A DNA stretch of 64,000 nt from a virus. Its lineage: Duplodnaviria > Caudoviricetes. Shown here in pieces: positions 1-64,000 of this stretch. The notes beneath the pieces were generated by a model. The model worked only from the letters and a program-made list of their open reading frames with translations, did not search any database and was not told the origin of the DNA. The translations under genes and the position numbers were made by a program. Numbering within the stretch: the first letter of the stretch is position 1; every line of letters starts with the position of its first letter. The stretch spans positions 1 through 64,000 of IMG/VR virus record IMGVR_UViG_3300021387_000036. One strand, written 5' to 3'.

Positions 1-57
1 AAACTCTTCAAAACATTGAAAGTAAAAGTTAATATAAATAAGAGGAGGATTTTATAA

Positions 58-1482
58 ATGAATGGATATCAATCTATTGCAACGATAAGCTCTCCGGAGT
101 TTATAAATCTTCAACCTCTTGATATAAACCCATTGATGTCTAAATGTGAAATTAAAGTTTTATATTTAGGTAATAATAGAAATGGTACCAGTATAAATAG
201 AGCAGCTGCGATAGAGATGGCTAAGACTCTTCGTGGCGCTCCGATTGTAGGTTATTATAAGACAGAAAAAAATGACTTCTTTGATCATGGTGAACAGATT
301 ATTTATGATGGCGATGGTGTTCATTTTAATACTTTAACAAAACCTTATGGTTTTGTTTCACCAGATGCAAATGTATGGTTTCAAGAGTTTGAAGAGACCC
401 TTGAAACTGGTGAAACTATTCAAAGAACTTATTTGATGACTACAGGATATTTATGGACTGGACAGTATCAAGAAGCTCAACAAGTTTTAAATGATGGCGG
501 GAAACCGCAATCTATGGAACTGGATAAAAATTCCATGACCGGTTTTTGGTCAAAAGAAGATAATTCAGAGATGGAATTTTTTATAATAAATGACGCGGTA
601 TTTTCAAAATTATGTATATTAGGCGACGATGTGGAACCATGCTTTGAAGGTTCAAGTATTACCGCACCTAATATAAGTAGTAATTTTTCATTAGATGATA
701 ACTTCAAACGAACTTTATATCAGATGATGAAAGAATTACAGTATGCTTTACAAGGAGGTAGTGAAACAGTGGGAGACGAACAAAAGAAAAAGTCTATTGA
801 TTCTTCTGTAGTTACTGAAATCGAAGAAGAATTAGACCAGACTCCAGCTGAACCTGAAACTCCAGATGCAACATCAGATACACCTTCAACTAATCCAGAT
901 TCTAATGAAGAAAGTGGAGAAACTTCAGAAACTGCTGAAGGACAAAGTGAAGAGTCTGGAGAAAATAGCGGAGAGGATTCAGGTGATGGTGGAGAAGGTT
1001 CTACCGATTATGAGAAAAAAGAAGAAAAGGAAGAAAAAGAGGAATCTTCTGATGATGGCGAAGAAGATGAACCTAAAGAAGAAGAAAAGAAAAAAGAAGA
1101 CGATAAGTATTCTTTATTATTAGTTCAATTTGAAGAACTTCAAGCTTCTTATAATACTCTCAAAGAAGAATCAGAGCAGACTAAAGCAGAGTTAGAAAAA
1201 TTTAAGAACTATGCTCTTGAAGAAGAAAATAAAAAGAAAGATGCTTTAATTCAAGAATTTTACATGCTTTCTGATGAAGATAAAAAGGATGTTATAGAAC
1301 ATAAAGCTGAATATAGTTTAAGTGAAATTAAATCTAAATTAGCAGTTTTATGCTATGATAAAAAAGTAAGTTATGCGAAAGCCGATGAGGATAGCCCAGA
1401 AGGAATAACAGTTGATGTTGTTGACTTCTCTGCAGTTCCTGAATGGTTACAAGCAGTTGATAACTATACAAAGAATAATTAA
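58..1482 (+). CDS. Prohead protease-scaffold fusion protein
   Basis: RBS GAGGAGG; first of three head genes. The N-terminal ~235 aa is globular with candidate catalytic His (FFDHG) and Ser (PQSMEL), followed by an acidic low-complexity linker and a coiled-coil C-terminus. Confidence 0.7.
   Translation: MNGYQSIATISSPEFINLQPLDINPLMSKCEIKVLYLGNNRNGTSINRAAAIEMAKTLRGAPIVGYYKTEKNDFFDHGEQIIYDGDGVHFNTLTKPYGFVSPDANVWFQEFEETLETGETIQRTYLMTTGYLWTGQYQEAQQVLNDGGKPQSMELDKNSMTGFWSKEDNSEMEFFIINDAVFSKLCILGDDVEPCFEGSSITAPNISSNFSLDDNFKRTLYQMMKELQYALQGGSETVGDEQKKKSIDSSVVTEIEEELDQTPAEPETPDATSDTPSTNPDSNEESGETSETAEGQSEESGENSGEDSGDGGEGSTDYEKKEEKEEKEESSDDGEEDEPKEEEKKKEDDKYSLLLVQFEELQASYNTLKEESEQTKAELEKFKNYALEEENKKKDALIQEFYMLSDEDKKDVIEHKAEYSLSEIKSKLAVLCYDKKVSYAKADEDSPEGITVDVVDFSAVPEWLQAVDNYTKNN
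769..1482 (+). CDS. Putative nested capsid scaffolding protein (internal in-frame GTG start)
   Basis: AGGAGGT at 753-759 lies 9 nt before an in-frame GTG at 769, exactly at the boundary between the globular domain and the acidic/coiled-coil part. Confidence 0.55.
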   Translation: MGDEQKKKSIDSSVVTEIEEELDQTPAEPETPDATSDTPSTNPDSNEESGETSETAEGQSEESGENSGEDSGDGGEGSTDYEKKEEKEEKEESSDDGEEDEPKEEEKKKEDDKYSLLLVQFEELQASYNTLKEESEQTKAELEKFKNYALEEENKKKDALIQEFYMLSDEDKKDVIEHKAEYSLSEIKSKLAVLCYDKKVSYAKADEDSPEGITVDVVDFSAVPEWLQAVDNYTKNN

Positions 1483-1496
1483 GGAGGAAACCGAAC

Positions 1497-2027
1497 ATGG
1501 CTACAATAAAAAGAAAAGGTTTTGGTCAGGTAGAGCCTAATCATCTTTCAGCTCAAAGAACTGGACAGATTTATGCTCAGCTTGTAGCGAATAAGAACCT
1601 TAATATTATTGAAAACGGAATGTTTTTAAAATATGACTATGAAAATAGAGAAGCTAATCTCACAGGAGATGGCGAATGGCTTTTAGTTTATAATGAAGAA
1701 AAACTTTATGACCCTCGTAAGCAGGCACATAAAGATTTTGCAATGATTAAGACAGATTATGTTGATGGAGAAATGGTTCCAAGATTATTTAAGACAAATG
1801 TTGGAGACATCTATACTACAAACTGTCTTGAAGCTAATACATCTGATACAGCAGAAACAACTGGTGTTACAGTAGCTGTTGGTGACAAACTTGCAGTTCA
1901 GTCTACTGGTTATCTTGGTGCAGCTGGTACAAACCCAACAGGCCCAGTGTTCAAAGTAGTAGCAATTACAACAATGCCTGATGCCAATACTGATTATCAG
2001 GCTGTTAAGTTACAGCGTATATCTTAA
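1497..2027 (+). CDS. Head decoration / capsid-associated structural protein
   Basis: Lies between scaffold and major capsid genes; strong RBS AAGGAGG; beta-rich; codon usage like the capsid gene. Confidence 0.6.
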   Translation: MATIKRKGFGQVEPNHLSAQRTGQIYAQLVANKNLNIIENGMFLKYDYENREANLTGDGEWLLVYNEEKLYDPRKQAHKDFAMIKTDYVDGEMVPRLFKTNVGDIYTTNCLEANTSDTAETTGVTVAVGDKLAVQSTGYLGAAGTNPTGPVFKVVAITTMPDANTDYQAVKLQRIS

Positions 2028-2045
2028 TAAAGGAGGATTAAAGTC

Positions 2046-3131
2046 ATGGCATTAAGTAAAGAAAATCTTATTACATTAGCTAAGACAGTTGCAAAGGCTA
2101 ATCCTTCTGCTGCTGTTGCTTATAGCTTTAATGATAAAAATTATGGTTACAAAGAATTAGACGATACTCTTCGTGCAGAACTTAGAGAAATCGCTGGAAC
2201 ATATGCTCTTTACAGAGAGAATAAGAACATTCTTTTTGAACTTATTGAACAGGTTATTGATGAGGTACTTCCTCAAAGAGTTATTGAACAGTACGGTTCA
2301 TTTGCAGACATTCGTACTTTTGAACAAGGTGAAAAGCCTATCTTTGCAGTAAAAGCTTCACAAGCTTCAAAGCAGAGAGCTAAAAAGTTCGTTACTAAAG
2401 TAGGTCTTGCAGGTGTTTACGAAGTATTTAAGCTTGATGGATATACATTAGAAGTTCCTACAGAGGCATGGGGCGGAGCTGCTCAAATTGGTTTCGAGGA
2501 ATATCTTGATGGTAGAATCGACATGGCTGACGTTGTTGAAATCATCAACGATGGTCTTAATGAATGTGTTTATAGAGAAATTGCTAAGGCTCTTAAGAGT
2601 GCAGTAGCTCAGATTGCAAACACAAACAAGAAGAGTGATAATACTTTCGTTCAGACAAAGATGGATCAGTTACTTCAGATTGCAGATGCTTATGGAAAAG
2701 CTACTATTTATTGTACTTTTGAGTTCGCTGCAACAATGGTGCCTGACCAGAACTGGATTTCAAATGAGCAAAAGAACACTATGTGGAACGTAGGTTATCT
2801 TGCTAACTATAAGGGACACAATGTAGTAATTCTTCCTAACTCATTTGAAGATACAGGTAACACTGTAAAGGTTATGGACCCATCTTATGCTTACATTATT
2901 CCAACTGGCGCAGATAAGCCAATCAAAGTTGCATTTGAAGGCGATGCCGCAGTTAGAGAGTGGGAGAACAAAGATTGGTCAAGAGAAATCCAGACTTATA
3001 AGAAGTTTGGTATCGGTCTTGTTGGTCTTAATGCAGGAATCTGTGTATATCAGAATACTTCTCTTACACAGGGAACACCTTCTGGTATAATCACTAAGAA
3101 AGCTGCTCCTGGACTTTCACCAGAATATTAA
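2046..3131 (+). CDS. Major capsid protein
   Basis: 361 aa, typical position, strong RBS, high-expression codon bias, followed by a terminator. Confidence 0.8.
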   Translation: MALSKENLITLAKTVAKANPSAAVAYSFNDKNYGYKELDDTLRAELREIAGTYALYRENKNILFELIEQVIDEVLPQRVIEQYGSFADIRTFEQGEKPIFAVKASQASKQRAKKFVTKVGLAGVYEVFKLDGYTLEVPTEAWGGAAQIGFEEYLDGRIDMADVVEIINDGLNECVYREIAKALKSAVAQIANTNKKSDNTFVQTKMDQLLQIADAYGKATIYCTFEFAATMVPDQNWISNEQKNTMWNVGYLANYKGHNVVILPNSFEDTGNTVKVMDPSYAYIIPTGADKPIKVAFEGDAAVREWENKDWSREIQTYKKFGIGLVGLNAGICVYQNTSLTQGTPSGIITKKAAPGLSPEY

Positions 3132-3146
3132 AATTAAATAAAACTC

Positions 3147-63166: not shown

Positions 63167-63194
63167 ATTTTGATTTTCCTTTTCCTTTTTTTAT

Positions 63195-63223
63195 ATTATA
63201 AAAAAATTTTTAATAAAAATCAA
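63195..63223 (-). promoter_or_regulatory. SigA-like promoter
   Basis: TTGATT-17-TATAAT. Confidence 0.7.
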
Positions 63224-63229
63224 ATAGAC

Positions 63230-63274
63230 AAAAAAATAAGGAGACTTATTATATTAATATAATAAGTCTCCTTA
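63230..63274 (-). terminator. Perfect 38-bp palindromic terminator after the endolysin
   Basis: TAAGGAGACTTATTATATTAATATAATAAGTCTCCTTA plus T-run on the minus strand. Confidence 0.8.
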
Positions 63275-63278
63275 ATAA

Positions 63279-64000
63279 TTAATTAACTTTTTTTGTATAA
63301 TCTAAGCAGATCCAGCCTTGGCCTGACTTAAGTTTACCCCAATTTCCTTTAGTTTCTACTATTGTAAAAATTTCATTCATTCTAACGTATCCAGTAATTG
63401 CATAATTTGTTCCTGCGCCTTTTCTAATTCTTAAAGATTTTGTATTTACTCTAACTTTATATGATGATGCGGCAGCCGGTGTAGTAGAGCTTGAAGCTGG
63501 TTTTGAAGTGCTACTAGATGAGGTTACAATCATAGAAGGTGTGATTGTACCTGTAATAGCTCCAGTCTTTTGAGTGCTAAAAATAACATTATTTCCTGAT
63601 TTACCTCTATAATATAAAGTTGATTTTATTACCCAATCAGGAATTTTCTTACCTGAAGCATATGTTGCACCACTTTTCAATTTAATTATATCTCCATTTT
63701 TATATGTTGTTGAAGTAGATGGAGTTGCGGGAGCCGGTGTAGGAGTAGGAGTAACTGGAGTATGTGTTGCACTAGACGAGCTCCCGCCCTTTAATAATGC
63801 AGCAACTTCTGTTCTAACATTACTCATATTCTTACCTAATATTTTAGGGAACCAATGGTTTATATCCGCATGCCCGCTTCCATATCCTAATTTCCAAGAG
63901 TCTTGATGACAAGTAATCGTAGGCACTTTAGTACCATTTACATTCACTGTTCCTGTTGGATTAATATTAAATTTATCACATAAATAAGCAGTTAATCTTA
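63279..64000 (-). CDS. Endolysin (N-acetylmuramoyl-L-alanine amidase-type) with C-terminal SH3b, 5'-truncated by the window
   Basis: Frame is open to the window edge (RLTAYLCDKFNINP...TCHQDS...HAD); Pro/Thr/Ser linkers; SH3b LRIRKGAGTNY...WGKLKSGQGWICLDY. Confidence 0.8.
   Translation of the reverse strand, partial: RLTAYLCDKFNINPTGTVNVNGTKVPTITCHQDSWKLGYGSGHADINHWFPKILGKNMSNVRTEVAALLKGGSSSSATHTPVTPTPTPAPATPSTSTTYKNGDIIKLKSGATYASGKKIPDWVIKSTLYYRGKSGNNVIFSTQKTGAITGTITPSMIVTSSSSTSKPASSSTTPAAASSYKVRVNTKSLRIRKGAGTNYAITGYVRMNEIFTIVETKGNWGKLKSGQGWICLDYTKKVN

Follow-up and report, generated by a model that had tools for sequence, protein, structure and literature searches.

Why should an AT-rich phage genome carry hundreds of copies of one GC-only tetramer, and which machinery would read them? 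The question is raised by a 64,000-nucleotide stretch of DNA (hereafter the window), the first 64 kb of the 130,270-bp IMG/VR virus record IMGVR_UViG_3300021387_000036 (Caudoviricetes; terminal overlap 107 bp). GC content and the observed/expected ratio (o/e) of CpG are 30.7% and 0.56 in the window, and 31.7% and 0.66 in the whole genome. A preliminary description of the window had pointed out that GCGG and its complement CCGC are over-represented irrespective of strand, mostly as TGCGG(G)A or T(C)CCGCA, and had suggested that the genome may be tiled with a recognition site for a phage protein. Our analysis indicates that GCGG/CCGC is very probably a DNA-level word maintained by a force that is particular to this phage lineage. 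We commit to the view that it is kept by selection and read by phage-specific machinery.

Excess of GCGG and CCGC in one phage lineage

The window contains 234 copies of the word, against 56 expected from a first-order Markov model (CCGC 27.7, GCGG 28.5). A second-order model predicts 56.5 CCGC and 56.6 GCGG, which leaves z scores of 11.4 and 10.4, and the two orientations take ranks 1 and 2 among all 256 tetramers. This bears out the strand-independent excess of the preliminary description, whose hand counts proved exact (22 copies in 1–6700, and eight in 55000–55500, where there are 13 CpGs). Altogether, 28% of the CpGs in the window lie inside GCGG or CCGC. The whole genome holds 558 copies (315 CCGC, 243 GCGG), corresponding to 4.3 per kb and an o/e of 3.5. 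No other GC-only tetramer is equally enriched in the window: GGCG/CGCC come closest at about twofold, CCCC, GCCC and CGGC occur about as often as expected, and GGCC and CCGG are depleted.

Codon-preserving nulls were computed for the whole genome (171 open reading frames, ORFs) using coding-strand counts. Under synonymous shuffling, CCGC occurs 190 times against 68 ± 6.7 (z 18) and GCGG 305 times against 157 ± 9.6 (z 15.5), so that the excess above the shuffle mean is similar for both words (+122 and +148, respectively). The enrichment also outlasts a shuffle that preserves dinucleotides (z 13.1 for CCGC and 9.0 for GCGG), after which the two words still rank first and second. Non-coding DNA, with RNA genes removed, contains 34 copies where 17 ± 3.9 are expected (z 4.3, about twofold).

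The copies in genes are made mainly through otherwise rare codons, wherever the neighbouring codon permits the tetramer. The third base of XC_ codons is C in 23% of cases ahead of a codon starting with GC and in 4% ahead of one starting with GA, GG or GT. For Gly (GG_), C is used in 41% of cases ahead of GG and otherwise in 9.5%; for Ala (GC_), G is used in 27% ahead of GG and otherwise in 6%; and for Pro (CC_), G is used in 27% ahead of C and otherwise in 5%. Control codons that cannot complete the tetramer show the usual avoidance of CpG. Because the word is present in both orientations and all three frames, is enriched in non-coding DNA and depends on context-specific use of rare codons, the signal sits in the DNA and not in the protein, as the preliminary description had proposed.

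The extended form fared less well. All 13 extended sites that had been listed do read TGCGGGA or TCCCGCA where they were placed; the extension, however, adds little to the tetramer, with flanking positions contributing at most 0.2–0.3 bit, part of it because T-ending codons and the GGA codon are common. All 16 combinations of one-base flanks are enriched, A as the 5' base least of all (AGCGG 1.8–2.2-fold, against 3–6-fold with any other base in that position).

The word is a property of related phages. Of about 100 related loci, most have GCGG/CCGC as their highest-ranking tetramer (o/e 1.1–5.0). Among eleven whole genomes, o/e is 2.5–4.2 in six and 1.4–1.9 in five, the weaker five being mostly higher in GC or undepleted in CpG. 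Five metagenome bins, which are candidate hosts only, allowed phage and cellular DNA to be compared: o/e is 0.5–1.9 on the cellular contigs and 3.9–5.0 on the phage contig of the same bin. The cultured relative EF1, an Enterococcus phage of matching composition (GC 31.9%, CpG o/e 0.64), has 151 copies and an o/e of 1.0; Bacillus phage vB_BcoS-136 and T4 give 1.02 and 1.01. A literature search found no published description of a GCGG/CCGC word in phages, in agreement with the preliminary description, whose author knew of no system with this motif. In the cellular contigs of bins G002, G004 and G005, the top 5-mers are TGGTG, GGTGG and GCTGG, all similar to the core of Chi in Escherichia coli.

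These comparisons make it hardly credible that the word is an ordinary compositional signature, whether of low GC content or of host DNA, or that it arises as a side effect of codon usage or protein composition. Phages do often mirror the k-mers of their hosts, and GC-rich words cluster in heterogeneous AT-rich DNA. However, the codon-preserving shuffles and the context-dependent third bases rule out codon usage and protein composition, and a host or generic low-GC signature is ruled out by the lack of excess in the low-GC cellular contigs of all five bins, in EF1, in vB_BcoS-136 and in T4; the other GC-only tetramers do not share the enrichment either. A floor on absolute density was rejected as well, as density climbs with GC content (log-log slope 0.73).

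Polar tail, second word and composite palindrome

The word has a direction. Around isolated copies, defined as those with no second copy within 45 nt, the 7 nt 3' of GCGG contain on average 2.98 G+C and the 7 nt 5' of it 2.21 (p 6e-10). The same 3' polarity is seen in five further strong-signal genomes (p 2e-36) and is lacking in EF1 (p 0.96). This GC tail accompanies sense, antisense and intergenic copies alike and stops at +7, which sets the unit at about 11 nt: K-GCGG, followed on the 3' side only by C/A-rich positions +1 and +2 and by G+C enrichment up to +7.

A second word, CAAKAG, is also over-represented, with 292 copies in the genome (CAATAG 162, CAAGAG 130, both strands counted) in sense and antisense orientation. 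GCGG lies on the same strand 15 to 100 nt downstream of CAAKAG 86 times against 54.8 expected, a number reached in none of 400 circular shifts, and upstream of CAAKAG there is no excess of GCGG. The link between the two words is repeated in G003, G004, G006, G007 and G014 and absent in G016 and EF1.

Two copies of the word frequently form a spaced palindrome. GCGG-N3-CCGC occurs eight times in the window and GCGG-N4-CCGC three times, against 0.01 and 0.00 in dinucleotide shuffles. Genome-wide, the counts are 13 against 0.8 and 11 against 0.7 under an independent-site model conditioned on the proteins. The opposite arrangement, CCGC-N3-GCGG, is absent, reverse forms overall number 0–1, and the GCGG-N3/4-CCGC peaks recur in 92 related loci. 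A single arrangement may be favoured because in the palindrome each copy provides the GC tail of the other. An RNA hairpin was rejected as the explanation: other complementary GC tetramers are unenriched, the reverse form, which could pair equally well, is missing, and the loops are variable. On the 52-kb phage contig G005:C1, seven of the 11 GCGG-N3-CCGC palindromes share their spacer (GCGGCAACCGC / GCGGTTGCCGC), and a CAA/TTG spacer recurs in G000, G002, G004 and G007; judged from these repeats, the 11-mer may be more specific than the tetramer alone.

We tentatively suggest that the parts belong together in a two-part polar cis-signal that can lie on either strand (CAAKAG, 15–100 nt, then GCGG with its GC tail) and is almost missing from cellular DNA; it would be a 'self' tag that brings the DNA machinery of the phage to its own genome. 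Such a tag would serve primase–helicase loading or priming, or the discrimination between phage and host DNA by a nuclease or packaging factor. If true, the two-part signal would be an as yet undescribed phage equivalent of uptake sequences or Chi. The uptake sequences of Haemophilus (uptake signal sequence, USS) and Neisseria (DNA uptake sequence, DUS) are likewise words that occur throughout a genome, coding regions included, and in both strands; they combine a core with a one-sided flank composition, and they too mark own against foreign DNA. Their carriers, however, are competent bacteria whose uptake machinery reads them, whereas here the carrier is a phage and the core has only four nucleotides.

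The palindrome could instead point to an abundant phage protein that binds double-stranded DNA; each palindrome would then be a full dimer site and each single word a half-site, and through such a protein the chromosome could be organised, marked or regulated. The obvious candidate is the product of 53653–53994, one of two winged-helix proteins put forward in the preliminary description. It is predicted to be a MarR/TFE-like winged helix with a long C-terminal helix (predicted local distance difference test score, pLDDT, 89; best matches MepR/MarR and TFE-alpha, template modelling score about 0.5), and it is specific to the clade, being encoded in nine of ten uncultured relatives and absent from EF1 and from the related phage Phass-1. 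The palindrome stands 16–38-fold above expectation, is strictly orientation-specific and is nearly confined to phage DNA in whole bins. Even so, we regard this explanation as rather unlikely. More than 80% of the copies are solitary, and neither the one-sided GC tail nor the same-strand link to CAAKAG would be expected of a symmetric dimer site; half-site centres 7–8 bp apart are unusual for MarR-type dimers, and G016 has GCGG as its top tetramer without a homologue of the protein.

The level of the word varies between genes. The preliminary description had seen none in the decoration, major tail and 53653–53994 genes, those with the strongest codon bias. The structural gene at 7038–8153 has no copies against 8.0 expected, gene 1497–2027 falls in a copy-free gap (968–2473), and gene 53653–53994 has none, although few were expected there. 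The capsid gene (2046–3131) carries two copies against 5.4 expected and an ORF of 2,951 aa 34 against 52. The deficit in some structural genes is in keeping with a force that is weak at each site and gives way to codon bias.

Conservation was measured at aligned sites with conserved amino acids, comparing relatives of about 50% protein identity with G000. Copies in G000 are matched by a copy in the relatives in 48% of cases; capable sites that lack a copy in G000 carry one in 25%, and other CpG-forming G or C third bases are kept in 18%. The propensity is thus general over capable sites, and positional conservation is modest, little above the inertia of rare codons. Among 29 listed strain differences, which have no statistical power, none destroys a copy and two correspond to an extra copy.

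These figures have to be weighed against a neutral drive, in which phage-specific context-dependent mutation, biased short-patch repair or gene conversion creates CCGC together with a GC patch. Several observations agree with it: the propensity of capable sites is general, with relatives filling 25% of those empty in G000 and conserving 48% of copies, spacing is not regular, highly expressed genes carry the word weakly or not at all, and a polar GC tract of about 7 nt matches a very short repair patch in length. We nevertheless find such a drive improbable. Of the 16 GC-only tetramers, a single one shows the excess, and an oriented palindrome linked to a second word is hard to obtain by mutation. 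The closest model, very short patch (VSP) repair in E. coli with its CCWGG-related words, resembles the phage in its strand-symmetric excess of short CG-type words and in the possible short patch. In the phage, however, the deamination products of the word are undepleted under the codon shuffle (CTGC/GCAG z −1.6/+2.1; CCAC/GTGG z −0.2/−1.8), and no C5-methyltransferase gene or Vsr-type partner was found in the genome. A drive of the VSP type is therefore unlikely.

Candidate readers of the word

A reader on the phage side is plausible because the word is specific to the phage lineage. The candidate that we favour over the others, though only as a possibility, is the phage primase–helicase acting on single-stranded DNA, with the word as the preferred start site of the primase. 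The phage carries its own replisome. The genes for a DnaE-type polymerase, a DnaG-type primase and a DnaB-like helicase lie in the window (Table 1), and the genome further encodes a RecD-like helicase, NrdD, RecJ and an NAD ligase. The primase is present in ten of ten relatives, and the replication core that includes it is common to strong-signal relatives, weak-signal relatives and EF1; its zinc ligands are conserved in the relatives, including EF1.

The known primase sites are short template words: CTG for DnaG of E. coli, CTA or TTA for DnaG of Firmicutes, and those of phages T7 and SP6. The phage word would resemble them as a short word on a single-stranded template from which the primer starts with a purine, Aquifex offers a precedent for a GC-only site, and the phage encodes a zinc-domain DnaG-type primase beside a DnaB-like helicase; the polar tail would suit a short primer. 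It differs from them in that its spacing is irregular, and an upstream second word and a spaced palindrome are foreign to known primase sites. To our knowledge, no primase site has so far been described that is in excess at silent codon positions over a whole genome.

In the mechanism that we envisage, the phage replisome would read the unit of about 11 nt on single-stranded DNA. On a template 5'-CCGC-3', the primer would start with pppGCGG and continue into the GC-rich tail, which would yield a stable primer, about 11 nt long, although the rest of the genome is 70% A+T. The word would occur on both strands because both act as lagging-strand template, and in the palindrome each copy would be placed in the GC tail of the other. 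Selection on each copy would be weak, and the strong codon bias of highly expressed structural genes would prevail over it. The DnaG primase of Aquifex primes on the GC-only triplets CCC, GCC and CGC (PMC2532735), and template specificity resides in the zinc-binding domain of primases (PMC2978363). In one complete genome of 167 kb (G022:C1, the IMG/VR contig behind L026), the zinc cysteines of the primase are lost (TIDHNP...LFVSYSGG for TICHNP...LFKCYTEC), and this genome has the weakest word signal of the eleven, a single case. What makes the primase a possible reader is that the unit is one-sided and about 11 nt long, that the primer would start with a purine, that Aquifex provides a precedent, and that the phage has its own replisome and uses both strands equally; the density, one copy in about 470 nt on each strand, may point the same way. 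We hold this assignment tentatively.

Several points weigh against it. EF1 lacks the word despite an intact and very similar zinc-binding region in its primase. The gaps between copies on one strand are indistinguishable from random draws among word-capable sites, the longest being about 11 times the mean; with both strands pooled, the copies are clustered (coefficient of variation 1.34 vs 1.12), so that the genome cannot be called 'tiled', as the preliminary description had it. The longest stretch without a copy on either strand (Table 1) lies within the 2,951-aa ORF. The DnaG primer length of 10–12 nt is that of other enzymes and may not hold for the phage primase. A dimeric protein bound to double-stranded DNA would account just as well for the orientation-specific palindrome, and the primase reading leaves the role of CAAKAG unexplained. 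Finally, comparisons of gene content are confounded by phylogeny, which applies also to the contrast between strong- and weak-signal relatives, where only small unknown ORFs, a tail-fibre-like ORF and an RNA ligase emerge.

A second kind of reader would be a helicase-nuclease, either host AddAB/RexAB or a phage enzyme, that recognises the word at DNA ends in the manner of Chi. A Chi-like signal would promote recombination and shield phage DNA in its linear or rolling-circle form. The Chi sequences of Firmicutes have the GCGG core in common with the phage word, since AGCGG in Bacillus subtilis and GAAGCGG in Staphylococcus aureus both end in it, the distant cultured relatives of the phage have Enterococcus and Bacillus as hosts, and most bins are labelled Bacilli. 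The unit is polar, and three of five bins have AddB-like genes, although these weak and partial matches decide nothing. Chi itself (GCTGGTGG of E. coli; LLS class, P1; PMC12315714) is a short GC-rich polar word that phage genomes accumulate. We nonetheless consider a Chi-like role unlikely. AGCGG is the least favoured flank form, the contigs of candidate hosts show neither an excess of GCGG nor a top 5-mer containing it, and the same word is found in phages binned with many different taxa. It is missing from EF1, whose host is of the AddAB type. Enrichment is the same for both orientations, at about 4 per kb, and the phage has its own RecJ-like and RecD-like genes, whereas the Chi-rich lambdoid phages are those without a recombination module (PMC12315714).

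Gyrase had also been named as a possible reader. The GyrA/GyrB-like pair indeed accompanies the word, being present in ten of ten uncultured relatives and absent from EF1, and the ligase is distributed in a similar way (eight of ten, absent from EF1). Mapped gyrase sites, however, are centred on GNNC in a 4-bp stagger whose flanks are phased at 10 bp, with GATC the most cleaved (PMC12630141). A gyrase cleavage site was therefore rejected: GCGG is not GNNC, and the GNNC palindromes GATC and GGCC are strongly avoided in this genome. The second winged-helix protein (50863–51252) is not supported as reader, since it has a homologue in EF1, which is without the word.

The remaining candidate of the preliminary description, an orphan adenine methyltransferase, did not stand up either. 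The ORF in question (41407–41931) encodes 174 aa that match positions 208–368 of a 458-position methyltransferase profile, and is probably the remnant of a gene or part of a split one, judged from this partial match; homologues occur in two of five strong-signal and two of five weak-signal relatives, unlinked to the word. A search for Pfam DNA methyltransferase families (C5, N6_N4, D12, Dam) across the genome gave none. A methyltransferase reader was rejected on these grounds, and the word is very unlikely to be the target of DNA modification or self-marking (AciI-type CCGC methylation or hypermodification) that tells phage from host DNA. Such a target would account for a word almost exclusive to phage DNA within bins, and CCGC is a known restriction–modification recognition sequence. 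On the other hand, with a sporadic fragment as the sole methyltransferase-like ORF, with strong avoidance of GATC, GGCC and CCGG suggesting largely unmodified DNA, and with a site that is enriched and not avoided, little speaks for modification; a target alone would not be selected to become commoner.

Selected words of this kind have been informative before: with Chi, uptake sequences and the FtsK orienting polar sequences (KOPS), it was in each case the word that led to its reading machinery being discovered. The phage clade pays a cost in codon usage for hundreds of copies of a four-nucleotide core with a polar tail, and the candidate hosts and EF1 do not. If the primase is the reader, this would be the first case known to us of priming sites visibly shaping silent sites; if a self-marking or protective factor is, it would add a new layer to the discrimination between phage and host. 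A practical use is already at hand, as the word and GCGG-N3-CCGC pick out phage contigs in metagenome bins: across the five whole bins (1.1–2.3 Mb), 58 of 64 copies of the palindrome lie on the phage contig.

Genome, host setting and further features

The phage is uncultured, and the public sequencing runs that contain its genome are bovine or gut metagenomes. At the DNA level, comparison with known phages gave a single weak match. Relatives of the capsid protein were found on 24 IMG/VR contigs and on 74 contigs within metagenome-assembled genomes, the latter mostly labelled Bacilli, Erysipelotrichaceae, Mollicutes, Lachnospiraceae or Clostridia; more distant relatives are the cultured Enterococcus phages EF1, H1 and VRE9 and Bacillus phages. 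The clade comprises abundant, uncultured phages of gut and rumen with genomes of 105–175 kb. Coordinates of the features in the window are collected in Table 1.

Table 1. Positions in the window of the word field, its palindromes and gaps, and the genes discussed.
Feature	Position	Strand	Remarks
GCGG/CCGC word field	1..64000	.	234 copies (120 CCGC, 114 GCGG, counted on the + strand)
GCGG-N4-CCGC composite palindrome	497..508	.	also 36979-36990, 53058-53069
GCGG-N3-CCGC composite palindrome	3570..3580	.	also 5440-5450, 11459-11469, 18629-18639
GCGG-N3-CCGC, remaining copies	21510-21520, 46167-46177, 52529-52539, 59069-59079	.
Structural gene without the word	7038..8153	+	0 copies vs 8.0 expected, 53 capable sites, p 3e-4
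Longest copy-free stretch	12975..16005	.	3,030 bp, neither strand, in 2,951-aa ORF
DnaE-type DNA polymerase III alpha subunit	35536..39513	-	Pfam DNA_pol3_alpha, PHP, finger and HHH_6 domains
DNA methyltransferase fragment	41407..41931	-	NPPF motif; sporadic in relatives
DnaG-type DNA primase	44223..45332	-	N-terminal CHC2 zinc-binding motif; PHROG 47, E 2e-32
DnaB-like replicative helicase	45565..47106	-	primase partner; PHROG 19, E 1e-58
Winged-helix protein	50863..51252	-	weak Pfam helix-turn-helix matches; EF1 homologue, 35% identity
Winged-helix protein	53653..53994	-	113 aa, C-terminal helix; candidate double-strand reader
GyrA-like and GyrB-like pair, type II topoisomerase	57901..62376	-	GyrA-like 57901-60264, GyrB-like 60463-62376

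Other tetramers are scarce. In the window and the genome, GATC has an o/e of 0.2, GGCC of 0.1 and CCGG of 0.46, and CTTA/TAAG and CTCA are also low. Non-coding DNA contains no GGCC against 26 expected and four GATC against 44. The avoided palindromes vary between relatives, some being without any GATC and others avoiding CCGG or GCGC. The scarcity of GATC, GGCC and CCGG probably reflects restriction avoidance.

The ORFs of the window read well with translation table 11. In three relatives (G004:C2, G012:C1, G019:C114), in-frame TAG (and TAA) codons lie within the matches to the capsid gene, and the related phage Phass-1 is filed under 'code 15 clade'; from these sequences, TAG may be read as an amino acid in part of the phage family. 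Outside the window, 13 tRNA genes and a tmRNA gene (tag ANNYALAA) are clustered at genome positions 94,303–99,794, and a lone tRNA-Lys gene lies at 118,426–118,498.

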